IMG/VR virus record: IMGVR_UViG_3300033183_000299
Coordinates: 1-43,507 of that record
Length of the DNA stretch: 43,507 bases
Direction: 5' to 3' (one strand)
From: a virus
Shown in pieces: positions 13,061-31,417 of the stretch. Both the position numbers and the translations under genes were made by a program. Every line of letters starts with the position of its first letter. Within the stretch, counting starts at the first letter, position 1. The notes beneath the pieces were generated by a model that was given only the letters and a program-made list of their open reading frames with translations, ran no database searches and had not been told where the DNA came from.

Positions 13061-13084
13061 AAGCCCCCGATGAACTCGGAGGCC
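13061..13084 (-). terminator. putative intrinsic terminator ending the island transcripts
   Basis: GCCCCCGA-tgaac-TCGGAGGC hairpin followed on the minus strand by a long U-rich tract (13010-13062). Confidence 0.45.
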
Positions 13085-13108
13085 TCGGCCTTGTAGCGTG
13101 TCTCTATG

Positions 13109-14128: not shown

Positions 14129-14399
14129 TGGGTCTCCATTGCTGTTGATTATACTATAATATAACATGGTAGCAACCACCTGTCAAATAAAATCTGTTAC
14201 TTTAACGGACAGAAACTGTCCGGGTCTCTACGATTCCGTATCTCTGGGAAGCCTGGAAGGCCTTGGCCTTTTTCGTGGGCAATTGGGAATGTATAGTTAT
14301 GTAAAGTTTTTTGGCACCTGATAGTTATGTTAAGTTTTTTGTAGGATCGCTACAACGTCGGGGCTACCGACGTTATAGAACCATGTCGCTGGAACCGAC

Positions 14400-15059
14400 T
14401 TAATAGGCATCGTTCAATTCACCCATGATATCGTCGGGGATGGTGTCGTCACCGTATTCTGCAAGCAAGCGGTCTGCAAGGCGTTTGGCTTCCTTTCGTT
14501 CCATAGCCAACCGACGTTTGCGTTCTGCCTTGCTTTCTCGATCGAGAGTAACAACGTCCACCACAACATCGGTATAGTCGGAAATGTAAGACATTGGACT
14601 GACCACTCGAACATACTCGTTAGGTTCGAACCGTTCGATAGCATCGACTTTCTCTTGCCATGTCTTTGTAAGTTTATCGGTGCTCTCGGACTTGTAGAGA
14701 CGTTCAATTGTGGCGATGGTGCTATCAATCGATGCGTTCGCACAAGCCGACAACATAGCAACTTTCTCTTGTGCCGTCAAGATGTCTGAACCATCGGCTA
14801 ATTCGTACTCATAGTCGTCATTCCACTGTGTGATCGCTACTCGCATGTTACCATCGGGTGTGTATCCCTTGACTTCTCCCATGCCGTAGGGGGTAGGTAG
14901 GGTAGCACCGATCTTAAATACATAGCCACCTACAAGGTTCTTACGGATACGGATAGGGCGACCGTCGGGATCGATACCATCTACTTTGTAGCCTGCGATA
15001 GTTGTGGGTGTCATGGACTTGATGAATGAGTAAGGTAAAGACTGTGTAGTCATGGGCAA
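14400..15059 (-). CDS. hypothetical protein
   Basis: 219-aa ORF behind an operator-promoter. Confidence 0.75.
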   Translation of the reverse strand: MPMTTQSLPYSFIKSMTPTTIAGYKVDGIDPDGRPIRIRKNLVGGYVFKIGATLPTPYGMGEVKGYTPDGNMRVAITQWNDDYEYELADGSDILTAQEKVAMLSACANASIDSTIATIERLYKSESTDKLTKTWQEKVDAIERFEPNEYVRVVSPMSYISDYTDVVVDVVTLDRESKAERKRRLAMERKEAKRLADRLLAEYGDDTIPDDIMGELNDAY

Positions 15060-15169
15060 TGTCCTTTGAAAGGGTTGTTGTTGAAGATGTTATAAGTGTA
15101 TCATGGTTGGAGAGAGTTGTCAAGTGGAGAAACGGTCAATTTTTGTCCACCTCTCCACAATGCCGAGAA

Positions 15170-15475
15170 TTAGAGCCATTCAGGTGCTTTACCGTCTTTT
15201 AAGAATTGACGATAGGCTGTATTGATACAGTCGTATTTCTCGAATAACTCATCATAATAGCGACTGTATTGGGCAAATCGTTCCTTATTATCGTCTGATG
15301 GATTATAATAGTATTGCATAGCAAGTTCATTCAAGCGGGCTTGAATAGTTGGGAAAGCCATTTGATGGGTGTGCAAGAGTTGTTGAAAGCGTATAAGTGT
15401 CTGACCATATGTAGACATATTCGATCCTGTGTTGAGTGTTGTGTTGACGTGGTGTGAAGATGGTTGTAAGGTCAT
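15170..15475 (-). CDS. hypothetical protein
   Basis: Start moved to MTLQP behind CAGGAG. Confidence 0.6.
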   Translation of the reverse strand: MTLQPSSHHVNTTLNTGSNMSTYGQTLIRFQQLLHTHQMAFPTIQARLNELAMQYYYNPSDDNKERFAQYSRYYDELFEKYDCINTAYRQFLKDGKAPEWL

Positions 15476-15549
15476 TGTTGTCTCCTGTGTTGTTGTTGAT
15501 GTTATCATTGTATCATGGTTGGAAAGGTTTGTCAAGTTCAATTCGGTCA

Positions 15550-15717
15550 TTATTTGTCCGATGGTTTGATTGATAGGGATTGAACGGAATAGTTTGAATA
15601 CATATGGTATGCACGTCTCTTGCAATTGCTAGTTGTATAGGCTTTCATGGTGTGGTTGTGACTCTCTAATTGCCCTTGACGATTGATGATAGTGATACGA
15701 ACGGTGAAGTTACTCAT
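15550..15717 (-). CDS. hypothetical protein (55 aa, not in ORF track)
   Basis: MSNFTVRITIINRQGQ...SDK; own promoter; stop lies inside the next operator. Confidence 0.6.
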   Translation of the reverse strand: MSNFTVRITIINRQGQLESHNHTMKAYTTSNCKRRAYHMYSNYSVQSLSIKPSDK

Positions 15718-16173
15718 TGGATTGTCCTGTGTTGTTGTGAGAGTTAGTATTGTATCATGTTCTCAAAGGTTTGTCAAGTAAAATCTGTTACTTTGCCGGT
15801 CAATTTCTGTCCGTTGCTTCTATGGTGGCGAAGGCCACGGCCTTGTAGAGAGCGCACTTTCTTTTTCGTTGGTATGGATTTGGGGATGGATAGTTATGTA
15901 AAGTTTTTTGGTCTCGTCAAGACTTTTCGTTGGTATGGTAACTTGCTATTCTAGCGTCTGTATGGGCAATTTGGTGTTAGTTCTCTCTAATAAAAGTACG
16001 ACTTTATAATGGGTATCGTCAAGAGCATTTAAGAGCCTTAAATGAGATGTAATAGTTATGTAAAGTTTTTTGCCACTGTATAGTTATGTAAAGTTTCTTG
16101 ATGACCCACGAAAAAGGTATAGGCCTTAAAAGTTGGTATACCTTTTTCATCTTCCATAGGAAGCACCTAACAT

Positions 16174-16374
16174 TTAAGGCTCTGAAACCATAGGTTTCGT
16201 ACCACGTACCCACTCACGTTCTGTGTAAAGACCATCGGTCTCACGTGCCTGATCAAGCATGATCATGTGTACCTTAAAATACGGTACTCCATCCAATTGA
16301 AAACCACGATGTTCAATCTTTGTAACCAATACAAGTCCGAACCGTTGGGTGTTGTAGAGATTGCCTACTTGCAT
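16174..16374 (-). CDS. SH3/KOW-like miniprotein
   Basis: MQVGNLY...FGLVLV. Confidence 0.65.
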   Translation of the reverse strand: MQVGNLYNTQRFGLVLVTKIEHRGFQLDGVPYFKVHMIMLDQARETDGLYTEREWVRGTKPMVSEP

Positions 16375-16550
16375 TGTGTATCCTGTGCTATGGGTGTGTA
16401 TTGGGAACTAAATGATGGGATGTTGATGTAACGTACTTTTCCGTTGGCGAATGAGTGTAAACCTATGCGGTTCTCGGACTTGTAGACGATCATGAATAGT
16501 CCGTCTAGTGCGAAGTGTGTGTATAAATCTCCGAATTCGTGGGTAGTCAT
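16365..16550 (-). CDS. SH3/KOW-like miniprotein
   Basis: HEFGDLY; GGAGA RBS. Confidence 0.65.
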   Translation of the reverse strand: MTTHEFGDLYTHFALDGLFMIVYKSENRIGLHSFANGKVRYINIPSFSSQYTPIAQDTQCK

Positions 16551-16753
16551 AGGGTCTCCGTAAAGGGGTCTAGAAAGGACTTTGGTGGCTTGGGGCGGTA
16601 GTAGGGTAGGGGGGTAGTGTACAAGGGCTTACAAGGGGTGTGAGGTAGGTTTCTGTGGACGTTCCATACCACCACACCTTTCACGCCCATATTTACAAGG
16701 GTATATACACTGGGTACATACAAGATAGTTAGGGGACTGTACAAGGATGGAAA

Positions 16754-17002
16754 CTACCTACCAAATAAATTCTCCAATGCTTGTTGTAGGGGATCACCTT
16801 TTGCCTTGCTAGGTTGGGGCTTTATCTTTGATCTACTGATGAAATCATCGGTGTCCGTTTCTAGGGCTGATAGCAAGACCCAATCGGTTTTATCGACTTG
16901 TGGAAAGTAACACATGCAAAGATAGTCTTTCATCTTCGGGGCTTTGGAAAGGATATAACCTTTACCGTATTCAACGTGGTATACTGTATCAAATTGGTTC
17001 AT
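16754..17002 (-). CDS. SH3-like miniprotein
   Basis: DTVYHVEYGKGYI (VxHxxxGxG motif). Confidence 0.7.
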   Translation of the reverse strand: MNQFDTVYHVEYGKGYILSKAPKMKDYLCMCYFPQVDKTDWVLLSALETDTDDFISRSKIKPQPSKAKGDPLQQALENLFGR

Positions 17003-17022
17003 GGGATCTCCGATGTTGTGGG

Positions 17023-17205
17023 TTATTGGTGTGTACGAATGAGTTGGACTTGATGTACTGGAAAGTTATAGAACTTACCACCTTTTGCTACGGTAACGGT
17101 ATTGCCACCACCAAAGGATACGAAACGATAGGTATTGTTGTTATAAATTGCAATCATGGGGATCTCCGATGTTATGGGTTTAGTCGTTGTTATACTTGTG
17201 TTCAT
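17023..17205 (-). CDS. hypothetical miniprotein
   Basis: ORF with GGAGA RBS before an internal Met; start uncertain. Confidence 0.5.
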   Translation of the reverse strand: MNTSITTTKPITSEIPMIAIYNNNTYRFVSFGGGNTVTVAKGGKFYNFPVHQVQLIRTHQ

Positions 17206-17340
17206 TGTTTAGTAGGTATGGGATATACAGGCTCATAGCCATAAGGTTTACACCGATCATTATAAGGGTATTCATTGGTGTCTCCGATTGATGGGGTTGC
17301 TTTGTTGATGTTATAAGTGTATCATGGTTTGGCTAAAACG

Positions 17341-17598
17341 TCAAGGACAAATTTTGACCGTTCCGTTAAACCATCGTATCTGACGACCTTTGTAGTTGAT
17401 AAACGCATAGTTGTGGTTGCCTGCGGTATCGTATTGTGCCATGAAACTCTCATACACACGATACCATCGCTTGCCACCGTTGATCTGAACCATCTGATCT
17501 GTCGGTATTCTCGAACCAAAACCGTTCTTGTTGATCGCTCGGTCGATTGATGATTGGATTAAAGGGTTTGATCGGGTCTTGGTTATCTTGATATCCAT
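17341..17598 (-). CDS. hypothetical protein
   Basis: Start MDIKIT behind GGAGA; ends VKICP* inside the next operator/-35. Confidence 0.7.
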   Translation of the reverse strand: MDIKITKTRSNPLIQSSIDRAINKNGFGSRIPTDQMVQINGGKRWYRVYESFMAQYDTAGNHNYAFINYKGRQIRWFNGTVKICP

Positions 17599-17697
17599 AG
17601 TGTCTCCAATGTTGTGGTGTTGTTCTGTTGATGTATATAGTGTATCATGAATGAGACCGTTTGTCAAGTGTCCAAACGGTCAATTTCTGTCCGACTG

Positions 17698-17976
17698 TTA
17701 ATGAATGTAAACATGTTCTGTCATGATCTCGCCATTTTGGGAATACAAGGTGATTGACGTACTAGCATGGATCGGCAAACCTGTTGACAGGTCGTCAAAG
17801 CGATACAGTTCCAATATGTAGCCATTATCGAAACGGTATTCAACGCTGTTGTCGGTGGTTCGGGTATGGTCGATGATTGCTTTGGTGTTGTGGAAGATGT
17901 CCATAATGATTGCAACAAGTTGCTTATTGATCTCTTTAATGTCGATGGTGTCTGTATTTTCCATTGATGTCTCCAT
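17698..17976 (-). CDS. hypothetical protein
   Basis: ORF behind an operator-promoter. Confidence 0.7.
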   Translation of the reverse strand: METSMENTDTIDIKEINKQLVAIIMDIFHNTKAIIDHTRTTDNSVEYRFDNGYILELYRFDDLSTGLPIHASTSITLYSQNGEIMTEHVYIH

Positions 17977-18186
17977 TGGATGGGGTTTGTCGTTGTTGAT
18001 GTTTATAGTGTATCATGTTCTCAAAGGTTTGTCAAGTAATAATTGTTACTTTGGCGGACAGTTTTTGACCGTTCTTCTATGGTCTCGGTGGTGCGAGAAT
18101 CGTGGGGAGATTGGATTGGGGTTTCCATTTATAGTTATGTAAAGTTTTTTGGTGGTCTCCGAAACTACCGACATGATAGAAGAATA

Positions 18187-18292
18187 CCCACGATAGAATA
18201 CCAAAGGCATCTATACGTGGGCACGTGTGGGAGATAGTCAAAGACTATCATGTATGGGTGCAAATAGCCTTTGGCTATCATGCCCATACATG
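18187..18292. other. cluster of three hairpins (structured element)
   Basis: CCCACGATAG/CTATACGTGGG; GATAGTC-aaa-GACTATC; CATGTATGGG...CCCATACATG enclosing ATAGCC-ttt-GGCTAT. Confidence 0.55.
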
Positions 18293-18305
18293 GGGGATTG
18301 ATGTA

Positions 18306-18653
18306 TCAATCCAATAGTGTGGTGAGCACGATCTCACACTTGTTCGGGTCATAGGTGGCTTCGCCACTTGCGAGAGCATCTACGAGCCATTTGGCTTCCT
18401 TGCGGGCTTCACGCAAGGTGTCATACTCTACAAATGCGTATGAGTGGATGCTCCCACTCTCCATAGCCATGCGTATGGAATACTTGCGATCTCGCTTGTA
18501 GTTGTGGTCGCTCGTGATGAACACGCAACCACCGAGCATATCACCGATAAGACGTGTGCCGAACATCTTCATGGTGTCTCGGTCGAACCAATGAAAGCCT
18601 TGTTGATAGTTGAATTGACGAAATTGAGAAAGAGATTTGTAATTGCCTAACAT
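18306..18653 (-). CDS. hypothetical phage protein
   Basis: HWFDRDTMKMFGTR...FITS motif; start moved to MLGNY. Confidence 0.7.
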   Translation of the reverse strand: MLGNYKSLSQFRQFNYQQGFHWFDRDTMKMFGTRLIGDMLGGCVFITSDHNYKRDRKYSIRMAMESGSIHSYAFVEYDTLREARKEAKWLVDALASGEATYDPNKCEIVLTTLLD

Positions 18654-18715
18654 GTCGCATCCTGTGGAATAGTTTTGGGGTTGGGGGTAGGGTAGTAGAT
18701 GGGTAGGGTATGTAC

Positions 18716-18736
18716 CCACACCCCTTTGGGGTGGGG
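18716..18736 (-). terminator. GC-rich hairpin after the AAA gene
   Basis: CACCCC-ttt-GGGGTG core; no clear U-tract. Confidence 0.35.
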
Positions 18737-18748
18737 CTTGACTGATGA

Positions 18749-19807
18749 TTAAGACGCGAGAATACGCATAAGGTAGTCTTTTGGCGTGCTACCGTCCGAC
18801 AAAGTAGCCGTATGGATACCATGAGCATTGTGTGCAACTTCCTTGCCTTTCGAGATAACTTGGAAGAACAGCATACCGAGTTCCGATGGTAGCGATACAA
18901 AGTATTCTGCTACGTTGGTCAATTCGGTCTTATCGAGTTTACGGTCGAATACCTTTGACTGCTTGAAACGTTCGATCAATGCGTTGTGATCGTTGATTGA
19001 GAAATCTTTGGTAAGTTTGTGCTTGCCATCTAGGATCTCTTCGACAGTCACGATCTTGTTGTAGTTCTTGACGTAGTCAACAAGGGCGACACCAGCCTCG
19101 AAACCAACGAAACCTGTGGTCAAGTGATACAAGATACCGTTGTTAGCGAGAGCCTTGATATCTTGGTCTCCGATAGTCTTGGACAATCGCTCCCATGAGC
19201 GTCTTGATGGGTAAACCTTGTTAGGCTCGTAGTCATCGTTGTGTTCAAGATGGTTGTGATTATCGTTGATAAAGTCCCAAATGACTTGACTGACGTTGCC
19301 ATCTGCCCATGATAACCAATCTTCTACGGTTGGCTTTACATCGAATACGGTGTAACGGTCAAGTTCTGCGGGATCCATTTCTCCGACTTGATACTGGTCT
19401 CCATGATCTCCACCACCGTTTACACAGGCAAAGATTACAGTGTCGGGGTGCAAGGTGTAGCCTGCAATCTTGCGACTATCACACAACTCAAAGATACCTT
19501 GGCGGACTTCCATTGTGGCACGATCGACTTCATCGAGAAACAGGATTACAGGGTTGTTACAGGCATCGTGCAACCATTCGGGAGCAAGCCATTGAGTGAC
19601 GTTGCCTTCGACTTTTGGGAGACCTAGCAAATCGCCTTCGGTCATTTGAGATGCACGACGTTCGACAACAGGGAGACCCATTTGATCGGCAATCTGATAC
19701 ACGATTGTGGATTTACCGATACCGTGACGACCACGAATAAGGATAGGGAATTTTGCTGAAATTACGGATGGAAGAACAGAGTTTAATACTGAATAAGAAA
19801 TAGCCAT
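18749..19807 (-). CDS. MoxR-like AAA+ ATPase
   Basis: Walker A GRHGIGKS, Walker B ILFLDEVDR, MDPAELDR, PSRRSW. Confidence 0.92.
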   Translation of the reverse strand: MAISYSVLNSVLPSVISAKFPILIRGRHGIGKSTIVYQIADQMGLPVVERRASQMTEGDLLGLPKVEGNVTQWLAPEWLHDACNNPVILFLDEVDRATMEVRQGIFELCDSRKIAGYTLHPDTVIFACVNGGGDHGDQYQVGEMDPAELDRYTVFDVKPTVEDWLSWADGNVSQVIWDFINDNHNHLEHNDDYEPNKVYPSRRSWERLSKTIGDQDIKALANNGILYHLTTGFVGFEAGVALVDYVKNYNKIVTVEEILDGKHKLTKDFSINDHNALIERFKQSKVFDRKLDKTELTNVAEYFVSLPSELGMLFFQVISKGKEVAHNAHGIHTATLSDGSTPKDYLMRILAS

Positions 19808-20035
19808 GATAAATATCCTTTGGATAGAGTAATGAAAGTAGACAGGATTGTCTGATGTAATTAGTGTAACAGGTTAGTGAAAGAAAGTCAAGGACAGAAA
19901 TTGTCCGTTTGAGATAGTGTCGGTAGTTACGGTGGATCGTTCATATTGTCTCCTAAATGGTGATTGGTTATCTCGTTGTTGATGTTTATAGTGTAACACC
20001 TTGATGAAAAAAGTCAAGGACAATTTTTGACCGTT

Positions 20036-20206
20036 TCAGTTTTGATAGGCAAATTCACCGTTAATCTCGACATTGTCATAGTCAATAGATACATTCGCTC
20101 CCATCGCTTGGGCACTGTTAGAACAGTATGCGATAAAACCAAAGGTGGTAGCAAGGATTGAGAAAAGCATGATAAAGCCTATGTGTTCATTGATAAAGTG
20201 TTTCAT
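20036..20206 (-). CDS. small membrane protein (56 aa, not in ORF track)
   Basis: MKHFINEHIGFIMLFSILATTFGFIAYC...; own promoter and GGAGA RBS. Confidence 0.6.
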   Translation of the reverse strand: MKHFINEHIGFIMLFSILATTFGFIAYCSNSAQAMGANVSIDYDNVEINGEFAYQN

Positions 20207-20275
20207 GGTGTCTCCAATGAAAGGGTTGTTTTGTTGATGTTATAAGTGTATCATGGTTTGGCTAAAACGTCAAGG

Positions 20276-20485
20276 TCAAAAATTGTCCGTTAAAGGTTTT
20301 GCGTCTAACATTCCACCAATACCGAATGTTTTATCTTCACCTGTGTCCATGTTATGGGCTTTGATCTTCATCGCCTTGTGGATATAGCAATAAAACGTAT
20401 CGGTGATAGCGATATAGGTTTGATAGCCATTGATAGAATGGGGGAATTTGAATAAGTCGCCTTTGGTCATTGTGAGTAAATCCAT
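20276..20485 (-). CDS. SH3/KOW-like miniprotein
   Basis: MTKGDLF; stop lies in the next operator. Confidence 0.65.
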   Translation of the reverse strand: MDLLTMTKGDLFKFPHSINGYQTYIAITDTFYCYIHKAMKIKAHNMDTGEDKTFGIGGMLDAKPLTDNF

Positions 20486-20566
20486 GTTGTCTCCATGTTT
20501 CGTTGTTGATGTTAGTAGTGTATCATGAATTGAATGATTTGTAAAGGTCAAAAAATGTCCGACTTG

Positions 20567-20938
20567 CTACAATCGGTATTTTCTGCGTGTTGTAGTGTGC
20601 TTCTCGGTAAGGTCTCGATACATTGGATGGGCTTGCAAGGTCTCGTCAGTCATCATCAATAATGCTGGATGATCGGCAATCTCGGATACATAGCCACTAA
20701 CACTGTCCCAATCTCTCGAACGGATGCCGAATGATTTACCTGTGGGGATATGAGTTACGCACCATTCGCCACCATATCGGGATCGGTTTCCATCTTGTAT
20801 CTCTTGGTGCTCTCCCAAAGGTCGGTGGATAGCCATCGGGTACTGTACTACCCCTACGATGTTCTCGATAATTGTGATACCATCACGACTTTGCCATGCT
20901 CGCAAGTTGATAGTGTCTTTTCGGGTCGGTTGTTTCAT
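20567..20938 (-). CDS. hypothetical phage protein
   Basis: WCVTHIPTG motif; own promoter. Confidence 0.75.
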   Translation of the reverse strand: MKQPTRKDTINLRAWQSRDGITIIENIVGVVQYPMAIHRPLGEHQEIQDGNRSRYGGEWCVTHIPTGKSFGIRSRDWDSVSGYVSEIADHPALLMMTDETLQAHPMYRDLTEKHTTTRRKYRL

Positions 20939-20983
20939 GTTGTCTCCATGTTTCGTTGTTGATGTTTATAGTGTATCATGTTC

Positions 20984-21313
20984 TTAATCATTTGTCAAGT
21001 CATCAGGCGGACATTTTTTGACCAAATCTTCTATGTCTCCGTTACCAAAGACCAATTCTAAATGCCATCGGTAGGTACAGAGTTCTAGGGTGGTGGGGTC
21101 TAGTACCACCCAATTTTCGGGCTTTGTCTCATGTAAGATATACATCTTGCCTTTGATCCATACCATGTCGCCCACGTTAAACTCGCCTATGTAGGCACGC
21201 ATGGCGTCATGCTCTCGCTCCATTTGCCCACACGACTTGCATTGTTCATACTCGTGATCCCATTGGTGGGCTTTCTCGGTGGCAAAGCCACATTGACATA
21301 TCATACGTTCCAT
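20984..21313 (-). CDS. Zn-ribbon + SH3-like protein
   Basis: CQCG...CKSCG, then FNVGDMVWI. Confidence 0.7.
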   Translation of the reverse strand: MERMICQCGFATEKAHQWDHEYEQCKSCGQMEREHDAMRAYIGEFNVGDMVWIKGKMYILHETKPENWVVLDPTTLELCTYRWHLELVFGNGDIEDLVKKCPPDDLTND

Positions 21314-21365
21314 AGGTGCTCTCGTAAGGGGTTTTCGGTTAGGTGGTAGGGTGGTAGCACCCCAA

Positions 21366-21390
21366 AGCCCCCAAAAGGGCTTGTGGGGCT
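21366..21390 (-). terminator. GC-rich hairpin after the vWA gene
   Basis: AGCCCC-caaaagggcttgt-GGGGCT inverted repeat. Confidence 0.35.
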
Positions 21391-21400
21391 TGTTAGAGCC

Positions 21401-22636: not shown

Positions 22637-22742
22637 AATGTCTCCGTTGTTGTGGGGTTTCGTTGTTGATGTTTATAGTGTATCATGTTCTCAAAGGTTT
22701 GTCAAGTAAAATCTGTTACTTAAACGGACAGTTTTTGACCGA

Positions 22743-22907: not shown

Positions 22908-22915
22908 GCTGTCTC

Positions 22916-23257: not shown

Positions 23258-23336
23258 TGGTGTCTCCGTTGTTGTTTTGTTGATGGTAGTAGTGTATCAT
23301 GGTAGTAGGGATTTGTAAAGGACAAAAAATGTCCGT

Positions 23337-23543
23337 TTAAGAAAGTTTTTCAAAGTGCCATGTGAACATGCCGATAGGTTCGGACATTTTGTATTGGTCT
23401 TTGGTTCTGATGATATCAACCAACCGTATAGGCTCGGTTGGTCGTGTGTATCCATACCCCTTAATCTCGGACACCCCCAGTACCACACAGGTGTACCCAT
23501 GCTGTTTGTGTATCCATAACTCGCCTATCTTCGGTTCTATCAT
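23337..23543 (-). CDS. SH3/KOW-like miniprotein
   Basis: MIEPKIGELWIHK. Confidence 0.65.
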   Translation of the reverse strand: MIEPKIGELWIHKQHGYTCVVLGVSEIKGYGYTRPTEPIRLVDIIRTKDQYKMSEPIGMFTWHFEKLS

Positions 23544-23881
23544 ACTTGCTCCATGAGCCAATCAAGAAATTGTCGGCAATCTTCGGGGGTCACAAAGCCA
23601 GAGTTACCACGCAAACGTGCCATACCAAAGCGAAAGCCGATGCCGATGGTTTTACCGTTGGGGGTGGTGTAGTACCACTCGTTACCATATCCCTTGTAAC
23701 TCTCGTCACCCCAATCGCTCGGCTCTCCCAAAGCAAGCACAAGATCGTCTTGGCAAATGTAAGCCATAAACTCTCTGTAAGGCTCGGTGGTTTCGGGTAG
23801 TAGTTGTTGCTCGTACCATTCATTAAGTAGGTGGTCGATGTTGTGTGTGCCTATTGAGTCGTTGTGTTGTGTGTAATCCAT
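23540..23881 (-). CDS. hypothetical protein
   Basis: Start MDYTQ behind GGAGA. Confidence 0.7.
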   Translation of the reverse strand: MDYTQHNDSIGTHNIDHLLNEWYEQQLLPETTEPYREFMAYICQDDLVLALGEPSDWGDESYKGYGNEWYYTTPNGKTIGIGFRFGMARLRGNSGFVTPEDCRQFLDWLMEQV

Positions 23882-23892
23882 GATTGTCTCCG

Positions 23893-24039
23893 TTATAGGT
23901 GGAATAGGTTGTGTCCCCACTGCCCTGTTATTTCGCCACTGTCGATCCATTTAACAAGCCAACGGTCAATAACCCCGACTTGTCTAACGACAATGCCGAT
24001 CGTTCCATATTTGTCTTTTACAAGGTCTCCGATGTTCAT
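23893..24039 (-). CDS. SH3/KOW-like miniprotein
   Basis: MNIGDLVKDKYGTIGIVV...LVKW. Confidence 0.7.
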   Translation of the reverse strand: MNIGDLVKDKYGTIGIVVRQVGVIDRWLVKWIDSGEITGQWGHNLFHL

Positions 24040-24115
24040 GTTGTCTCCATGTTTCGTTGTTGATGTTATAAGTGTATCATGGCTTGGTTGATTTGTAAAG
24101 GACAAAAACTGTCCG

Positions 24116-24268
24116 TTATGCTATCACCTCGAAAGTTTCAGCCCAATGCCACTTCTCTAAACCGTCTGCCCACCGTATTCTGTACAGATTGTGTAGGTTG
24201 GACTTTTCAAGCACGACACCCACACAGCCATCGAAGGGGGATTGGACTAATGATCCGATCTGTATCAT
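24116..24268 (-). CDS. SH3/KOW-like miniprotein (50 aa, not in ORF track)
   Basis: MIQIGSLVQSPFDGCVGVVL...YRIRWADG; ATGA overlap with the upstream gene. Confidence 0.65.
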   Translation of the reverse strand: MIQIGSLVQSPFDGCVGVVLEKSNLHNLYRIRWADGLEKWHWAETFEVIA

Positions 24269-24597
24269 AACTTACCCTTTGAATTTCCGTTACCACTGTT
24301 CTCTCCAATCTTTGTGAAAGCAACATCATGGACAGACCCACTGCGTTGGTTATTCCAACCTGACCATTGATCCCATCCTTTGCGATAAAGGTCAGCGTCA
24401 TCTTCGTTCTGAAACTTTAAGATTTGGATACAAGCCATCTTACCATCGCCACTAGAAACGGCTCGAACGGTCTCTTTGATCTCGGTGCCCAATTCAAGAA
24501 CACAGTCGGGGCACTCGTTAATCTTACCACCAACACGTCTTTTGATTTGTGAGTTTAGATCGAATGTGTCGTCACAGTGAATACATATCTTGTTCAT
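24265..24597 (-). CDS. Zn-ribbon protein
   Basis: CIHC...ECPDC. Confidence 0.75.
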   Translation of the reverse strand: MNKICIHCDDTFDLNSQIKRRVGGKINECPDCVLELGTEIKETVRAVSSGDGKMACIQILKFQNEDDADLYRKGWDQWSGWNNQRSGSVHDVAFTKIGENSGNGNSKGKL

Positions 24598-24661
24598 GGT
24601 CTCTCCATGTTTGGGGGTTTTCGTTGTTGATGTTAGTAATGTATCCGATTGAGAGAAAAAG

Positions 24662-24919
24662 TCAAGGACAATTTTTGACCGTTATGATCTTGTCTCGACC
24701 CTGTCGGGTAAATGTAAAGGTCATGTCGTTACAGTGTAGGTCTCCACCCTTAAACTCATCCCATAGGCTCTCCACGTCTGTGTTCGTGAGTGCCTGTGAT
24801 ACGGATGAACTCGCTTGCGTAAAGTCATTACAGTCCCCTACCCACCCTTGTTCTCCGTAGTCGTCAGCCAATTCTTTCGCTGTTTTGAGAATGATCTCAA
24901 ACTTTTGTTGTGTATTCAT
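24662..24919 (-). CDS. hypothetical protein
   Basis: Start MNTQQ behind GGAGA; ends VKNCP* in the operator/-35. Confidence 0.7.
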   Translation of the reverse strand: MNTQQKFEIILKTAKELADDYGEQGWVGDCNDFTQASSSVSQALTNTDVESLWDEFKGGDLHCNDMTFTFTRQGRDKIITVKNCP

Positions 24920-25094
24920 GTTTGTCTCCGATGTTGACGATGCCACAGTCTTTTAGGTATCCCTTTTCAAAGGCATCGTGGTTAAAAATATGGTGTCTTG
25001 CGTAGTTGTGGAAGAAACGGACAACCCACTTGCCATCCGTTTCCTGTAAGGCATAACCAGCCCCCACTTTATCGTGAGTTACTAGGTGTATCAT
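24897..25094 (-). CDS. hypothetical miniprotein
   Basis: Start MIHLV behind GGAGAG. Confidence 0.6.
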   Translation of the reverse strand: MIHLVTHDKVGAGYALQETDGKWVVRFFHNYARHHIFNHDAFEKGYLKDCGIVNIGDKHEYTTKV

Positions 25095-25404
25095 TTTTGC
25101 TCTCCACCAAAGGACAAAGTCCATGACGTTGGGCTTCATCAACATTCATCCAGTTAGGTCTAGGGACTTTCTTTTTCGTCAGACGTACATGGTTGCTCGT
25201 TGTTTGCGAGATATAGTGCCCACCACCGTAGGTGTAGTCGTAGACTAGGGTAGCACCTTGTCCGTACCCATCGGGGATATGTTCGGCAATTCGAGTATCG
25301 AATGACCATAGGCTTTGCCCATCGGTTCGCAAAGTTTTTGATTTACATGGTTTCATTTCCATGAAGTTTTGGATGACTGTTTCATCAGTTGTAAAATAAG
25401 ACAT
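25069..25404 (-). CDS. hypothetical phage protein
   Basis: LRTDGQSLWSFDTRIA...SQTTSNHV. Confidence 0.75.
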   Translation of the reverse strand: MSYFTTDETVIQNFMEMKPCKSKTLRTDGQSLWSFDTRIAEHIPDGYGQGATLVYDYTYGGGHYISQTTSNHVRLTKKKVPRPNWMNVDEAQRHGLCPLVESKNDTPSNSR

Positions 25405-25489
25405 ATAATCTCCGTTGTTAGTCTAGTTTGTGTATAGTATTATAACATGTTCTAAAAGGTTTGTCAAGTAATTTCTTTACCTTTGTCGG

Positions 25490-26461
25490 TCATTTTTTGA
25501 CCGACTTGGCATACCACTTGTCTACAAGTCCGACAAAACCTTTGGCTTTTAGTTGTTCATGAGATCGTTTCTTACACACAAACTGCATAGCCTTTGCGTG
25601 GGCTTGGTCGATCCATTCGCTAGCCATAGGCTTTTCGCTAGGCGAGATTACACTGATACTCTGATAGTCAGACCATCCACCCTTTTGCGAAATAAGACCG
25701 TTAATGCCGATTGATTTGATCAAGTCATTATTCAGTGTGATTGTCTGTTGACGACCATCTACGATACATTCGATAACCACGTTCTGTTGTAGTGTGTGAT
25801 CAAGTGTTGATCGCCAACGACTTTGCATTGGCTTGTAGTCAGTGTCGGCACACATGGACAGTTGATCCCAATTGATCTTTGTAACAATACCAGTCTTTTT
25901 GACGATTGTAGCATTTTGACCCCATCCTTGTCTCTCGGTCAAGGACAGCAAAGCACCCTCGCTAATGCCGAGTTCACCGACAAACTTATCGTAAAACTGT
26001 TGTCGCCACTCTCGGTTGGCTTGGATCGCTTTGGCTACAAAGGTTTCCATTGGCGAACAATTTCTACGGTTGTGATCATGAGACCCACAGAAGCCACACT
26101 TGGCTTTGGCTTTGTTCTTACCTTTGGCTTTGGCTAGTGCCTTTCCTTTGGCTACGACTTGCTTGTTGTGGGCTTTCTCGCACTCGGCATACCACTTGCC
26201 CCATTGAGATGGGTGCTTGAACCATTGAGCAGTGCTTGCTTGTGATTTCCAATTATTTTGCCCTTGTGCTTTGGGCTTTGGGCTGTTTGTCCAGTTGTTC
26301 GGATCGGAACAAGGAATGTTAAACTTTTGGAACATAGCCCAGTCGGTGGCGACATGGGGACAGTCGGTAGCACGATGTTCTACATCACCACAATAAGAGC
26401 ATGATGGTTTTGAGTTTCCACTGGAAGTGCCGTTGTCTTGTTGATTGTTGAATATTTGCAT
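25490..26461 (-). CDS. double CCHC zinc-knuckle protein (paralog A)
   Basis: CSYCGDVEHRATDC and CGFCGSHDHNRRNC. Confidence 0.8.
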   Translation of the reverse strand: MQIFNNQQDNGTSSGNSKPSCSYCGDVEHRATDCPHVATDWAMFQKFNIPCSDPNNWTNSPKPKAQGQNNWKSQASTAQWFKHPSQWGKWYAECEKAHNKQVVAKGKALAKAKGKNKAKAKCGFCGSHDHNRRNCSPMETFVAKAIQANREWRQQFYDKFVGELGISEGALLSLTERQGWGQNATIVKKTGIVTKINWDQLSMCADTDYKPMQSRWRSTLDHTLQQNVVIECIVDGRQQTITLNNDLIKSIGINGLISQKGGWSDYQSISVISPSEKPMASEWIDQAHAKAMQFVCKKRSHEQLKAKGFVGLVDKWYAKSVKK

Positions 26462-26554
26462 GGGTTCTCCGTTGCAAAGGGTTGTTGTTTTGTTGATGTT
26501 AGTAGTGTATCATGGTTTGGATAGTTTGTCAAGTAATTTCTTTACCTTTGACGG

Positions 26555-26767
26555 TCAGTTTTTGTCCGTTTCGTCATCAGTACCGATTGGCTCGATGTGT
26601 TTTGTAAGGTGGATTTCTTTCTCGCAAGATACAAAGCCTGTGCGATAGCCTGTAAGCCACAGGATCATCCATGCTTTGTAGCCTGTATGGTTTGGGTGTT
26701 CCACCTTGACGATCCCGATCATGTCGGGATCAATCGTGGATTGTACAAGGTCGCCAACCGTTAGCAT
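26555..26767 (-). CDS. SH3/KOW-like miniprotein
   Basis: MLTVGDLVQS...IGIV...ILWLTG. Confidence 0.7.
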   Translation of the reverse strand: MLTVGDLVQSTIDPDMIGIVKVEHPNHTGYKAWMILWLTGYRTGFVSCEKEIHLTKHIEPIGTDDETDKN

Positions 26768-27690
26768 GGGAGACCTACCGATTTCTTAAACGCATTGATC
26801 TTCTTGTCTTTGTCGGCATGTGGGTAAAAGTCTCTAATGTAAGCACCCAAATACGACCATAAGTCTTGACCCTTGCGTTTCTTCATGACCCAGTCAATCG
26901 GCTCAAACTCGCCATCAAACCACTCTTGGCTCATGATGTTCGGAGCAGGACTGATGATCTCGGTGATTAGCCCATTATCCCAATAGCCATGTGGTTCTTG
27001 GACACCATGTTCTTTGCCGAGATAGTCTCGCTCGTTTCGGCTAACGTCAAAGTGAAACAGTTTTGGACTACCATTTGATTTACCCACAACGACCTTTTGA
27101 CCATCCAATAGAAAGCCCATTCGTAGGTTGGTGCGATAGTCGCTCCATGTGCTTTGTAGGTTCGTTAGAGAGATGGACTTGGGGTCTAACTCGGTCATTA
27201 GAGAAACCTTTGGAACATAGTCGCCTTGCTCTCGGTCATACTGTCGTAGGGATACCAGTGCCCCAGCACCCAACCCCATGCCTTTGATGAAACGGTCGTA
27301 AAAGTCTTGGCGATAAGCCTTGTTGGCTTGCTCGTAAAGGTGCTTAAACTTGGTCATAGACTTACAATTTCTACGGTTGTGGGTTGTCTTACCACAGAAG
27401 CCACACTTTGGTTTCTTGCGTGGTTTTTTAGCCTTTGTCTTTTCGGTTTCACCATAGTATTTCTCGGCTTTGGCTTGACCATATCGGACATACCACTGTT
27501 CTAGGTGGGTGCTACCAGTACCATACCACTGTGTAACTCTCGTCAATAGCGATGTGTCGATCTTGTCGCCACGTTGATCTTGCTCGTAGTGGGCTTTAAG
27601 GGTGGGGCAACGGTTGATACGGTGTCCGTTTTCGTAGCAATAGCCACAGGCAAAGTGAGATTTTTGATTGCGATTTTCATATAGTTTCAT
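26761..27690 (-). CDS. double CCHC zinc-knuckle protein (paralog B)
   Basis: CGYCYENGHRINRC and CGFCGKTTHNRRNC. Confidence 0.8.
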   Translation of the reverse strand: MKLYENRNQKSHFACGYCYENGHRINRCPTLKAHYEQDQRGDKIDTSLLTRVTQWYGTGSTHLEQWYVRYGQAKAEKYYGETEKTKAKKPRKKPKCGFCGKTTHNRRNCKSMTKFKHLYEQANKAYRQDFYDRFIKGMGLGAGALVSLRQYDREQGDYVPKVSLMTELDPKSISLTNLQSTWSDYRTNLRMGFLLDGQKVVVGKSNGSPKLFHFDVSRNERDYLGKEHGVQEPHGYWDNGLITEIISPAPNIMSQEWFDGEFEPIDWVMKKRKGQDLWSYLGAYIRDFYPHADKDKKINAFKKSVGLPC

Positions 27691-27754
27691 GGGTTCTCCA
27701 TTGAGTGGGGTTGTTTTGTTGATGTTAGTAGTGTATCATGGTAGGGGTAGTTTG

Positions 27755-27898
27755 TCAAGTATTGGAACGGTCAGTTTTTGTCCGTTTGTCGTATTTCTCA
27801 TAGATTTCGTTCATCTTCTTTCGGTGGTCTCGGACAATCAGCCAAAGAGCAAGTGCGAAACACACGTCAGATGCGAGTAGTAAGAGTATTGTAGTCAT
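27755..27898 (-). CDS. small membrane protein
   Basis: MTTILLLLASDVCFALALWLIV; start moved. Confidence 0.5.
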   Translation of the reverse strand: MTTILLLLASDVCFALALWLIVRDHRKKMNEIYEKYDKRTKTDRSNT

Positions 27899-27912
27899 TT
27901 GGTCTCCGATGT

Positions 27913-28164
27913 TCATTGTTCTTCTCCGTTGTCTTGGGGGGTATCGGTAGATGGGGCAGGTCGTAGTGTACCGTCTGATAGCATGCGAGTGACGGCTCTT
28001 TGAAACCAACCTTGTAATTTCCACACTTCTCCCGAGTCAACAAGGTGTTGCCATGCTTGAATGTAGGACATGTCGGGGGTTTCATCCATAGCACCCTCGG
28101 CTATCATGGTTGCGTTGTAGAGCATTTCGGCTTTTTGCTTTTTAGTTAGTTTCTTTTTAGTCAT
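27913..28164 (-). CDS. hypothetical phage protein
   Basis: AWQHLVDSGEVWKLQGWFQR. Confidence 0.75.
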   Translation of the reverse strand: MTKKKLTKKQKAEMLYNATMIAEGAMDETPDMSYIQAWQHLVDSGEVWKLQGWFQRAVTRMLSDGTLRPAPSTDTPQDNGEEQ

Positions 28165-28251
28165 TGTTGTCTCCGAGTTTTGTTGTTGATGTTTGTATTG
28201 TATCATGGTAGTAGGGGTTTGACAAGTCAGTATTCGGACAGTTTTTGTCCG

Positions 28252-28458
28252 TTAGTCTATAACCTCGAACCGTTCGGCTACACCATCTTTTGAGATTGTG
28301 AACCGTTGATTTATTCTGTCGGTGCGAGCGAGCCTGTAACCATCTACGATCCGAACACTTTGACCATATTGTCTCCGTATCTTGATGTGTTCCATGACCA
28401 TGAAAGGTACATTGGTTGGGGAACAAATGCCTTTTAGTAGTGTGCCGATGGGTATCAT
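28252..28458 (-). CDS. SH3/KOW-like miniprotein
   Basis: MIPIGTLL; AAGGAG RBS. Confidence 0.65.
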   Translation of the reverse strand: MIPIGTLLKGICSPTNVPFMVMEHIKIRRQYGQSVRIVDGYRLARTDRINQRFTISKDGVAERFEVID

Positions 28459-28637
28459 TTGATCTCCTTTGGTTGTCTGTGTAGTTGTTGTGGGATAAAG
28501 GTCATCGTCAATTTGTTGTTATTGGTGGACATGACTTGGATATGCCGATAGTCTCCGATAATACCGATTACCAATAGTGGGTGGCTACACCATCCCTTGC
28601 CATGTAGCCATACAAGGTCTCCGATTTCATGTTTCAT
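28455..28637 (-). CDS. SH3/KOW-like miniprotein
   Basis: MKHEIGDLVWL. Confidence 0.7.
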   Translation of the reverse strand: MKHEIGDLVWLHGKGWCSHPLLVIGIIGDYRHIQVMSTNNNKLTMTFIPQQLHRQPKEIK

Positions 28638-28714
28638 GTTGTCTCCATGTCTCATTGTTGATGTTAGTAGTGTATCATGTTGAGAGAAAAAAGCAAGGAC
28701 AGAAATTGTCCGTT

Positions 28715-28930
28715 CTATTCTTTTGTCGCTTTGTCGTCATTTGCTTTCTCCATGTTAAAGCCCATAGATGGGCGTTCTTCGGGTTTTTCGTCTTGGGGTA
28801 GGGGTCTAGAACCCATGCCCATCATCATGGCTTTCATGGGGTTCTGTGAGCCTGATAGGGCTATTACTGTAAGGACTTTGTCTACCAGTTCGTCTGATAG
28901 GTCGATTGTTAATTTGATTTGATTACTCAT
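28715..28930 (-). CDS. hypothetical miniprotein
   Basis: 71-aa ORF, AGGAG RBS. Confidence 0.7.
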   Translation of the reverse strand: MSNQIKLTIDLSDELVDKVLTVIALSGSQNPMKAMMMGMGSRPLPQDEKPEERPSMGFNMEKANDDKATKE

Positions 28931-29112
28931 TGTTGTTCTCCTAGTTTGGTTATATCTTCTTTTCCATATCTCAATGTTCTTCCATCGTCAAAAATGCGAA
29001 CGTCACAAGACCAAGTGCCCACATTCACTACGATAGCCATTTTGCCGACATATCGTGAATTAGCAAAGTCACAGTGTCTAATTCTTACAAGGTCTCCGAT
29101 TTCATGTTTCAT
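28927..29112 (-). CDS. KOW/SH3-like miniprotein
   Basis: MKHEIGDLVRI...YVGKMAIVV. Confidence 0.72.
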   Translation of the reverse strand: MKHEIGDLVRIRHCDFANSRYVGKMAIVVNVGTWSCDVRIFDDGRTLRYGKEDITKLGEQQ

Positions 29113-29167
29113 GTTGTCTCCATGTCTCATTGTTGATGTTAGTAGTGTATCATGTTGGTTGAAAAAG

Positions 29168-29368
29168 TCAAGGACAGTTTTTGTCCGTTTGATTTAGTGG
29201 TTCGAGAAACAGGGGTAGTTGAACCCTTTCAGGCCCATCCGACCATCGTACCACGAAGTATTCAGTCATGCCCATCGTTAGATTGGTATGCTTCATTACG
29301 GTTCTCACGATGATACCAACATCTCTTTCATATTTGTGTCTTACAAGGTCTCCGACTTTAAGGTTCAT
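29168..29368 (-). CDS. SH3/KOW-like miniprotein
   Basis: MNLKVGDLVRHK...VGIIV...VRWSDG; ends DKNCP*. Confidence 0.72.
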   Translation of the reverse strand: MNLKVGDLVRHKYERDVGIIVRTVMKHTNLTMGMTEYFVVRWSDGPERVQLPLFLEPLNQTDKNCP

Positions 29369-29376
29369 GCTTTCTC

Positions 29377-29583
29377 CTATGGTTGGGGATGGTAGTTTAT
29401 CTTAAAGTGTTTGCGTGGGTATTCTAGGTGCTTACCTACCCATGTGGGTTCTAGGTCATACCTTATTAGTTTACACCAAACAGATGCATCATCGGTTTCC
29501 ACGACAAGACCCAACATTGTATACTTATGGTTACCTACTAGGTCTCCGACTTGTGGCTCAATGTCTAGTGTTGCGTAAGTCAT
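29377..29583 (-). CDS. SH3/KOW-like miniprotein
   Basis: PQVGDLV...LGLVV. Confidence 0.7.
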   Translation of the reverse strand: MTYATLDIEPQVGDLVGNHKYTMLGLVVETDDASVWCKLIRYDLEPTWVGKHLEYPRKHFKINYHPQP

Positions 29584-29821
29584 TTTCCCCCCTTTTCATC
29601 AGTTTGGCGATCTTCTTCTGTCGCTCCCACTGATCCACTTGTTGTTCTGTTTCTAATACTTTTAATTCTTCTTCATTTAGGGGCACATAGTCCCCATCCG
29701 AGCCTATGAGTAGCCCTGTGTATCTACCGTAGGGGTAGCCTTGCCCTAGATCGTCAACAACGATAGCAAGGTGGTAGTCGCCCTTGAACTCAAATCCTAC
29801 CATATCTCCGACTTTTATCAT
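29558..29821 (-). CDS. SH3/KOW-like protein
   Basis: MIKVGDMV...LAIVV; start moved. Confidence 0.7.
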   Translation of the reverse strand: MIKVGDMVGFEFKGDYHLAIVVDDLGQGYPYGRYTGLLIGSDGDYVPLNEEELKVLETEQQVDQWERQKKIAKLMKRGENDLRNTRH

Positions 29822-29973
29822 ATTATCTCCCATATATAATCGTGTACTTGTGACTTTTCGCATGTATCCAGTAGATACACTCTTATCCAACCATCCCATC
29901 GGGACATGCCGAGAAAGATTGCGTATGTGTCGTATTTTTCTGTATAGATAAGGTCTCCAACTTTGTAATTCAT
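29818..29973 (-). CDS. SH3/KOW-like miniprotein (51 aa, not in ORF track)
   Basis: MNYKVGDLIYTEKYDTYAIFLG...; ATGA overlaps at both ends. Confidence 0.7.
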   Translation of the reverse strand: MNYKVGDLIYTEKYDTYAIFLGMSRWDGWIRVYLLDTCEKSQVHDYIWEII

Positions 29974-30137
29974 GCTATCTTCTCCAAGTTTTTAATGTAA
30001 ATGTGTTGCGTTGAGCCACTTTTCCATCCAGTGATCCAGTGGATTTCCAAAAAATTCAAAACAGGTGGGCGACCAGTCGATGTGACCACACCGAACCATC
30101 CACTCTTGCTACGAACAAGCGATCCTATTTCCATCAT
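29970..30137 (-). CDS. SH3/KOW-like miniprotein
   Basis: MMEIGSLVRSKSGWFGVV...IHW. Confidence 0.7.
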   Translation of the reverse strand: MMEIGSLVRSKSGWFGVVTSTGRPPVLNFLEIHWITGWKSGSTQHIYIKNLEKIA

Positions 30138-30331
30138 AATTTCTCCAAACATTCTTGATTTTTCCATATCCAATCGGTTTGCTGATTGGATAGAAACCAA
30201 CGAACCTTTATCATGTGATACTGTGGGTTTTTACTTGCGTTGTGCTTCTCGGCAACGATGATGCCATGATCTATGATCTCGTTATCGAAGCCGACCAATC
30301 TTATAAGGTCTCCAATTTTTGCGTTTTTCAT
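30134..30331 (-). CDS. SH3/KOW-like miniprotein
   Basis: MKNAKIGDLIRL...HGIIV...KVRW. Confidence 0.72.
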   Translation of the reverse strand: MKNAKIGDLIRLVGFDNEIIDHGIIVAEKHNASKNPQYHMIKVRWFLSNQQTDWIWKNQECLEKL

Positions 30332-30379
30332 GTTATCTCCGTTGTTGATGTTTGTAGTGTATCATGTTGTGGTGAAAAG

Positions 30380-30580
30380 TCAAGGACAGTTTTTGACCGT
30401 TTCTAAAAAGTCTCGGTCGGTTCGGACTTTCTGTTGGTCTTTGAACCAATAGACCCAAACCACGTTGTTGTTTTGATCGCACAGATCGGTGATTATACCA
30501 ACGTCATCCGTTATTCTTCGCCATCCACCGAGAGCCAATGATCCACGCATGGACAGTCTTACTAAATCACCTACAATCAT
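30380..30580 (-). CDS. SH3/KOW-like miniprotein
   Basis: MIVGDLVRL...VGIIT...VYW; ends VKNCP*. Confidence 0.72.
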   Translation of the reverse strand: MIVGDLVRLSMRGSLALGGWRRITDDVGIITDLCDQNNNVVWVYWFKDQQKVRTDRDFLETVKNCP

Positions 30581-30783
30581 GCTCGCTCCTGTCGGACATA
30601 TCCGAGTTTATTTAAAAAGTGTTTGTGTATATCTTCATGGAGATAAAAATGACCACCTTTGATCTTTGCGTTCTGTCGCTTGATCTTGATCCAACCCTCC
30701 GTATCAACCGATACAATCTCATAGGTGATCAATTCGCCATCCTGACGTATTGTCCATGACTTTCCTATCATATTATTACTCAT
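30577..30783 (-). CDS. hypothetical miniprotein
   Basis: ATGA-coupled ORF. Confidence 0.7.
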   Translation of the reverse strand: MSNNMIGKSWTIRQDGELITYEIVSVDTEGWIKIKRQNAKIKGGHFYLHEDIHKHFLNKLGYVRQERA

Positions 30784-30986
30784 GCGTTCTCCTTATTATA
30801 TTCATGTGCATGGACAAACTCTGTCTCATTAAAGTACCATGCCTGCTGATGTGCTATCATAAACACGTTCATGTTTACCATTCGCTCGTTAGGCACACTC
30901 ATTACTATTCCAATCTCGCCTGTGTAGATTGATGTATAGCACGAATGAGCCAATACCACGATGTCTCCAACCTTAAACTTACTCAT
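30780..30986 (-). CDS. SH3/KOW-like miniprotein
   Basis: MSKFKVGDIVV...TGEIGIVM. Confidence 0.72.
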   Translation of the reverse strand: MSKFKVGDIVVLAHSCYTSIYTGEIGIVMSVPNERMVNMNVFMIAHQQAWYFNETEFVHAHEYNKENA

Positions 30987-31099
30987 AATCTCTCCGTTGT
31001 TTGTGTTGTTTTCTTATCGTATCACGTTTGGAATGGTTTGTCAAGTAATTTCTTTAAGTTTCTCGGTCAAAAAATGTCCGTTTGATAGAAAGAGTTTGG

Positions 31100-31389
31100 A
31101 TAGTTATGTAAAGTTTTTTGCTTTTCTATTTGACAAAGCCCCGAAAACGTGTTACATTAGAGGGTAGCGGACAGAAATTGTCCTCTCGATTATTCACAAC
31201 CCTTGAACGGAGATTATGTTAAGTTTTTTTTTGGACTTTGCTTTCATAGTTATGTTAAGTTTTTTGAAACAAGTTGGAGATCGTCTCGAACTAATGGGCT
31301 TCGTTTGTCCGTTGGTCGGTCGGTCTTTTCTTTGTTTTGCTTTCCATAGTTATGTAAAGTTTTTTGTGGATAGTTATGTAAAGTTTTTT
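31100..31389 (+). repeat. 20-bp direct repeat ATAGTTATGT(A/T)AAGTTTTTT, right cluster (5 copies)
   Basis: 31100, 31210 (degenerate), 31246, 31346, 31370. Confidence 0.9.
31130..31184 (+). promoter_or_regulatory. divergent plus-strand promoter with downstream operator
   Basis: TTGACA(31130)-17 bp-TGtTACATT; operator at 31168-31184; GGAG-ATG at 31216. Confidence 0.65.
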
Positions 31390-31417
31390 GGATGCCCACT
31401 TAATCGTTGGTAACCAA

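Follow-up and report, generated by a model that had tools for sequence, protein, structure and literature searches.

A palindromic candidate operator in helical register with the promoters of a small-gene island in a marine T4-like phage

What reads a palindrome that precedes every minus-strand promoter of a viral gene island, and does this element act as duplex DNA or as a stem-loop? The question is raised by positions 1-43,507 of IMG/VR record IMGVR_UViG_3300033183_000299 (hereafter the window, 43,507 nucleotides), the full record of which spans 183,930 bp and is rated complete. The record represents an uncultured marine T4-like myovirus. Its T4-type core genes encode gp32, an S77 prohead protease, a T4 baseplate, gp25, a contractile tail sheath, and PhoH, and the phage also codes for a DnaE-type polymerase, GroEL, and ribosomal protein S21. 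The window contains an island of small genes that is best read as the early, hyperplastic arm of this phage. We propose that the palindrome found throughout the island may be the operator for a symmetric DNA-bending activator, for which host Fis is the most likely, albeit tentative, candidate.

Palindrome occurrence and promoter spacing

The 184-kb genome contains 25 copies of the palindrome CGGWCA-N5-TGWCCK, all located within 14206-31184. An exact-pattern search produced 34 strand matches, which represent 23 sites (0.01 expected from shuffles). A weight-matrix scan of the whole genome (183,930 bp) added two T-for-C variants at 15133 and 21008 and identified no site of at least 13 bits outside 14206-31184. 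All palindrome positions in a preliminary description of this DNA were correct according to these two scans, and genome-wide the matches are confined to the island and not scattered away from promoters. As that description also claimed, every minus-strand sigma70-type promoter of the island carries the motif upstream (24 of 24), compared with none of the ~27 strong promoters found elsewhere in the genome, including those at 1915, 37148, 40964, and 43352. The association between palindrome and promoter is real and statistically beyond doubt. The 25th copy (31168-31184), which was absent from the preliminary description, is located downstream of a plus-strand promoter.

The promoters outside of the island include a second class with ~27 uniform copies (e.g., 1915, 40964, 43352, and 44175 to 182072), which never have the palindrome. 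These promoters combine a perfect -35 box with an upstream element rich in A/T and a TG-extended TATAWT or TACATT at -10, and they drive replication, tRNA, and other genes. The -10 box TACACT was found only in the island.

Each of the 24 minus-strand copies belongs to a cassette with a fixed order, namely, palindrome, -35 box, spacer of 16-17 bp, extended -10 box (mostly TACACT), conserved leader, GGAG-type ribosome site, and small gene. The upstream flank of the palindrome is usually AAA, and approximately nine copies extend into the final codons of the gene upstream and nevertheless keep the motif. Between the 15-bp palindrome core and the -35 hexamer, 11 cassettes have a gap of 0, five have 10, one (15544) has 9, and seven have 20. 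These counts exactly reproduce the offsets of 0, 10, and 20 bp (9 bp at 15544) that had been claimed to be quantised. With the transcription start assumed to be 7 nt past the -10 box, the palindrome centres would be near -43, -53, and -63. The cassettes and the 25th copy are as follows.

14158..14222, minus strand: palindrome 14206-14222, gap 20, -35 TTGACA, -10 TATATT (pattern search and gap measurement)
15095..15149, minus strand: palindrome 15133-15149 (T first), gap 10 (weight matrix)
15507..15560, minus strand: palindrome 15544-15560, gap 9, over the end of the upstream open reading frame (ORF)
15749..15813, minus strand: palindrome 15797-15813, gap 20
17316..17360, minus strand: palindrome 17344-17360, gap 0, abutting -35 TTGACG
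17639..17693, minus strand: palindrome 17677-17693, gap 10
18007..18071, minus strand: palindrome 18055-18071, gap 20
19863..19907, minus strand: palindrome 19891-19907, gap 0, abutting -35 TTGACT
19990..20033, minus strand: palindrome 20017-20033, gap 0
20245..20289, minus strand: palindrome 20273-20289, gap 0
20517..20561, minus strand: palindrome 20545-20561, gap 0, -35 TTTACA
20970..21024, minus strand: palindrome 21008-21024 (T first), gap 10 (weight matrix)
22677..22741, minus strand: palindrome 22725-22741, gap 20
23291..23335, minus strand: palindrome 23319-23335, gap 0
24071..24115, minus strand: palindrome 24099-24115, gap 0
24638..24681, minus strand: palindrome 24665-24681, gap 0
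25439..25503, minus strand: palindrome 25487-25503, gap 20, consensus promoter that drives a zinc-knuckle gene
26504..26568, minus strand: palindrome 26552-26568, gap 20
27730..27784, minus strand: palindrome 27768-27784, gap 10
28197..28251, minus strand: palindrome 28235-28251, gap 10, drives the DUF7417 gene
28670..28712, minus strand: palindrome 28696-28712, gap 0, -35 TTGCTT, short spacer
29144..29187, minus strand: palindrome 29171-29187, gap 0
30356..30399, minus strand: palindrome 30383-30399, gap 0
31016..31080, minus strand: palindrome 31064-31080, gap 20, first cassette of the island
31130..31184, plus strand: general-type promoter 31130-31158 and the 25th palindrome 31168-31184, at ~+4 to +20 of the inferred start

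The position of the 25th palindrome is repressor-like, and a protein bound there should repress.

The 9-nt linkers of the middle gap class are unrelated in sequence and constant in length, which suggests that the spacing was selected and not merely inherited. The 20-bp linkers are alike in sequence. For the -35 box, a perfect match was found in none of the 11 abutting (gap 0) cassettes, compared with 12 of the 13 cassettes in the other classes. The combination of a weak -35 box and an adjacent factor is typical of class II activation.

Many other IMG/VR contigs contain several cassettes of the same build. When IMG/VR was scanned for the abutting form, with the sites that match the search pattern left out of the gap counts, the gaps observed in relatives were 0 (22 cases), 7-10 (six), 19-20 (13), 24-25 (three), 30 (one), and 42-43 (three). 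The quantised gaps of this genome therefore recur in related phages, which upholds the preliminary view that the same-face spacing is of the type expected for activators. The difference in -35 boxes also recurs, with perfect boxes in 13 of 51 abutting cassettes and 17 of 21 cassettes of other gap classes. A sequence-only model derived from the 25 sites found one site cluster of 18-20 kb in each of five related genomes.

Duplex site or stem-loop

The cassettes resemble the promoter-early stem-loop (PeSL) cassettes of the T4-type phages RB49/phi1, T4/PST, and KVP40/nt-1, which likewise recur between the small early genes of a variable region (PMC2839356, PMC4122927). In both cases, an inverted repeat is located just upstream of a sigma70-type promoter that is followed by a Shine-Dalgarno sequence and a start codon, and the modules are shuffled between relatives. 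The features that define PeSL cassettes and were found here include the hyperplastic small-gene region of a T4-type phage, the repeated unit of early promoter, Shine-Dalgarno sequence, and start codon, and the exchanges and indels of cassettes. However, the published stems are stable G/C-rich hairpins with variable sequences, and one of them was shown to terminate transcription. The palindrome in this study has a fixed arm sequence, a strict A/T centre, and a distance to the -35 box in helical turns, while most copies lack a stable hairpin. The architecture is a known one (i.e., PeSL type), and on the best reading what differs is a duplex operator in place of the stem-loop. The authors of the PeSL studies speculated that the stem might bind protein (PMC2839356, PMC4122927).

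One rival explanation is that the palindrome is an ordinary PeSL stem-loop, which would act as a terminator or attenuator between cassettes and as a homology patch for shuffling, such that the three spacing classes correspond to three cassette lineages. The anatomy and genomic setting equal those of the published examples (PMC2839356, PMC4122927), the element reaches or covers the stop codon of the upstream gene, shuffling of the islands is seen among relatives with approximately half of the genes being unique, and the 20-bp linkers are alike. Moreover, folding energies of -6 to -9 kcal/mol were obtained for nine of the 25 copies, and a T-rich run comes after several gap-0 copies. However, the other 16 copies have a central mismatch and negligible stability (-1 to -3 kcal/mol). 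A lenient terminator scan passed only three of the 25 palindromes, and the total of 22 for the region is not enriched over the shuffled mean of 16.8. Consistent with these values, the palindrome has neither the stable terminating stem-loop of PeSL cassettes, as judged from folding and covariation, nor the G+C-rich stem plus T run of an intrinsic terminator beyond those three copies.

If pairing is important, the A/T positions of the two arms should covary. The site statistics cover the 25 sites of this genome and 80 non-redundant sites from relatives, for a total of 105. No covariation between the two arm W positions was found in either set: these positions pair in nine and mismatch in 16 of the sites in this genome (Fisher p 0.09, leaning against pairing), and they pair in 57 and mismatch in 23 of the sites in relatives (Fisher p 0.28). 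What the relatives keep is the palindrome sequence, not arm pairing. Furthermore, all 105 sites have A/T at each of the three middle base pairs; this strict centre and the exclusion of G at position -8 have no rationale in a hairpin, and lineage descent does not account for unrelated 9-nt linkers that keep their length. Some relatives also manage without any hairpin. In L213 and L216, two more distant relatives found through the zinc-knuckle family, the same cassettes have an A-rich UP-like stretch in place of the palindrome, which suggests that the palindrome is interchangeable with a promoter-activating upstream element rather than a terminator. Taken together, the stem-loop explanation appears improbable. 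Half-sites that vary independently around a strictly A/T centre are characteristic of duplex DNA that is bound by a symmetric protein dimer and has its minor groove compressed in the middle, and the palindrome would be a duplex site of this kind rather than a hairpin.

So far, PeSL cassettes have been interpreted as units of a terminator and a promoter and as linkers for recombination. In this lineage, the "stem-loop" may rather serve as a protein operator, by which the whole hyperplastic early region would become one regulon. Because the operator travels with each cassette, newly shuffled genes would be regulated at once.

Candidate readers of the palindrome

In the mechanism that we propose, the 17-bp duplex operator would be bound by a symmetric, DNA-bending dimer. 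With operator centres inferred to be near -43, -53, and -63 on one helix face, the bound dimer would touch the alpha C-terminal domain (alpha-CTD) or sigma region 4 of RNA polymerase and activate transcription. A protein at the -53 and -63 sites would not obstruct the core promoter, which suits activation and not repression. The preliminary description had proposed that one dimeric activator switches on the whole island. The duplex dimer site, the same-face spacing, and the weaker -35 boxes at abutting sites agree with this proposal; activation itself, as well as protein binding and the identity of the binder, is what we infer from these sequence patterns. The binder would most likely be host Fis, a nucleoid protein linked to growth phase, or a Fis-like host protein, and if it is Fis, the strength of the immediate-early programme would follow the growth state of the host.

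The 15-bp core consists of G, G, W, C, A, five mostly A/T positions, T, G, W, C, and C, and the published high-affinity Fis sequence is G-NN-YA-W5-TR-NN-C (PMC3302801). Fis directly reads only the G at ±7, but its binding also requires Y-R steps at ±3-4 and the absence of guanine amino groups from the centre; at positions 7-8, TG or CG is best, a G at 8 is strongly inhibitory, and flanking A-tracts help (PMC4784862, PMC3711457). None of the 105 sites departs from the G at -7, the C at +7, or the CA/TG steps at ±3-4. At position -8, 87 sites have C, eight have T, 10 have A, and none has G, and no site has C at position +8. The relaxed form of the Fis motif was found in all 105 sites and the strict form G-NN-YA-W5-TR-NN-C in 60. 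In the genome, the strict 15-mer has 16 matches, of which 11 are island palindromes and five are in the other 167 kb, corresponding to a 21-fold enrichment in the island. The Fis motif is low in information; by our own rough estimate, the chance that a palindrome of such geometry fits this motif is well under 1 in 100.

The placement of the sites also resembles that of Fis-activated promoters. Fis activates through the alpha-CTD from sites on one helix face (PMC2885671). Like the palindrome, the sites of the enterobacterial promoters rrnB P1, tyrT, and proP P2 have a 15-bp core with G and C at its ends, an A/T centre, and Y-R steps at ±3-4; they also share the pyrimidine at -8, the A-rich flanks, and the location upstream of strong promoters on one helix face. 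The gap-20 class, in which the site is followed by an UP-like linker and then the promoter, is similar to rrn P1, and the gap-0 class, in which the site abuts the -35 box, is similar to proP P2. The differences are that the sites in this phage are far less degenerate and that 25 of them are found in one 17-kb island. By comparison, the class I and II promoters of CRP/FNR share the dimeric palindrome at integral helical turns and the weaker -35 box where the site abuts, but their half-sites are arranged as 5-6-5 (TGTGA/TCACA) or 5-4-5 (TTGAT/ATCAA) rather than the 5-5-5 of GGWCA/TGWCC, and the palindrome does not imply a CRP-family protein. Because the core has all of the stated determinants of high-affinity Fis binding and no phage regulator was recognisable, a host Fis-like protein is the most likely binder. 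The preliminary description did not include the Fis motif fit, the PeSL-type architecture, or the copy at a repressor position.

Several points weigh against Fis. To our knowledge, Fis is confined to gamma- and betaproteobacteria. The GDP-mannose dehydratase, which we used for host inference, has 58-66% identity to proteins from many phyla with PVC-group bacteria on top, and this is uninformative or mildly contrary. The classical Fis positions are -41 and -71, and the inferred centres of -43, -53, and -63 are near but not equal to these. In contrast to natural Fis sites, which are degenerate, the sites in this genome and its relatives show no variation at ±6, ±4, and ±3 and have only A/T at ±5; arms this uniform point to a reader with greater sequence specificity, or to an additional constraint. 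In addition, approximately half of the sites in this genome have one G or C at ±2. Sequence-based predictions of Fis sites have failed in experiments (PMC2885671), and A/T-centred 17-bp operators also suit repressors of the 434/P22 type (PMC3711457).

Alternatively, the palindrome could be read by a phage protein of unrecognised fold, either an injected activator or an early feedback regulator or shut-off factor. This is a serious rival, although we consider it unlikely. Twelve positions are invariant across diverged relatives, which makes the palindrome more specific than typical Fis sites; the copy at ~+4 to +20 of the plus-strand promoter has the classic position for repression or autoregulation; and the islands share a few conserved proteins with no assigned function, including the DUF7417 protein, two zinc-knuckle paralogs, and a MoxR/VWA pair. 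However, repression is hard to reconcile with the location of the -53 and -63 sites, which have an intact UP-like linker, and searches with Pfam, PHROG, and six-frame translations detected no DNA-binding family. Specifically, HTH_8, NinH, HTH_3, RHH_1, and MotA have no match in six frames of the phage, and the Pfam and PHROG scans of 128 proteins (44 from the island and 84 other small proteins) found no regulator. As candidate regulators, there are weak matches to Myb at 47645-47758 and to the histone-like Hc1 at 59472-59645. The statement in the preliminary description that the island has no convincing cognate regulator thus holds and extends to the rest of the phage. NinH of lambda is a phage-encoded Fis mimic and illustrates that phages can encode a Fis-like DNA bender (PMC7166090), but it has no match here.

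Among the shared proteins, the zinc-knuckle paralogs (25490-26461 and 26761-27690, both on the minus strand) are ~310-320 aa in length with two invariant CCHC knuckles each and a lysine-rich linker. Each of the five related islands retains them, and they probably bind single-stranded nucleic acids. As candidates for the cognate factor they were rejected, because relatives that lack the palindrome also carry this family. The DUF7417 protein (27913-28164, minus strand; 83 aa) shows unusual conservation, with 126 clusters at 60-90% identity in marine data. Its predicted fold has three helices (pLDDT 85), and the model matches no known DNA-binding fold, with no match in Foldseek and a best VIA-align Z of only 4.

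It is also conceivable that no additional factor is involved. In that case, the A/T centre would provide an alpha-CTD (UP-like) contact or phased curvature at -43, -53, and -63, and the G+C arms would merely frame it. The A/T centres coincide with the UP-subsites near -42 and -52, some relatives place plain A-tracts at this location, and the general promoters of this phage use A/T-rich upstream regions. However, this would not explain why ten arm positions, G/C among them, never vary across more than 100 sites, and the centre is equally often A-rich and T-rich in orientation. We therefore regard this explanation as highly doubtful.

With host Fis as the favored binder, a broader claim may be considered more cautiously. 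The whole family of marine T4-like phages could possibly tie the immediate-early island to host Fis through ~25 near-optimal, in-register sites per genome, such that the takeover starts fully only in growing cells and the one oppositely placed site has the reverse effect on the divergent promoter. Were host Fis the binder, these sites would provide a concrete route for a lytic phage to sense the growth state of its host at the first step of infection, and would bear on how marine phages cope with slow-growing hosts.

The island, its relatives, and other repeats

No match to GenBank phages was found in a megablast search with the island, and the tail sheath, DnaE, GroEL, and MoxR have just 25-45% identity to proteins of cultured phages with diverse hosts. 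The sequencing runs that contain parts of the island are marine DNA metagenomes only, with no RNA run among those listed. For ribosomal protein S21, which was also used for host inference, the Atlas matches are viral clusters only. An Rfam scan of the island found no family, and the window contains no tRNA.

The related islands have in common only a MoxR ATPase with its VWA partner, the two zinc-knuckle paralogs, the DUF7417 protein, and a few others. Approximately half of the island genes have no counterpart in related islands, and the gene order is shuffled; translocated and missing genes were observed in comparison with G002 and four other relatives. The island shows the behaviour of hyperplastic regions described for PeSL cassettes (PMC2839356, PMC4122927). 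In five relatives (L006, L008, L015, L084, and L219), a perfect sigma54-type -24/-12 box (TGGCAC, five bases, TTGCA) is located ~25 nt upstream of one sigma70 promoter; no such box was found in the genome of this phage.

A second repeat is also specific to the island. Ten co-oriented and near-identical 20-mers are located in the long non-coding stretches that precede gap-20 cassettes, and the rest of the genome has no copy. On the transcribed strand, these have an A-tract and a -35-like box, and a TATA-like word follows almost directly. Variants are present in the relatives L081, L065, and L011.

14293, 14321, 15890, 16052, 16080, 18131, 31100, 31246, 31346, and 31370, plus strand: 20-nt repeats

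The segment 31130-31413 (plus strand) contains the only plus-strand promoter at the island edge, which is followed by the 25th palindrome, a good ribosome site, and a 65-codon ORF. This phenylalanine-rich ORF (31216-31413) overlaps three of the 20-mer repeats. This segment may encode a small membrane peptide, or it may give rise to a non-coding RNA that is antisense to the upstream genes. As a regulator, the 65-aa ORF is an unlikely candidate because it is hydrophobic and overlaps DNA repeats.

The region 12850-31706 is strongly depleted of several 4-mers. AGCT is absent (~70 expected) and CCGG occurs three times (44 expected), while GCGC, CGCG, and GGCC have four, two, and nine occurrences, respectively. 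In the rest of the genome, AGCT is at expectation. Related islands avoid other 4-mers, with GCGC being absent in G005 and CCGG in G003. Such avoidance suggests that the island DNA meets host restriction unprotected, perhaps because it is the first to enter.

Many of the island proteins with 50-110 aa (28455-30986 and elsewhere) are paralogs with a common IGDLV-type N-terminus, and several share the C-terminal codons just before the palindrome. These shared gene ends fit cassette recombination in which the ends are constant and the bodies are swapped.

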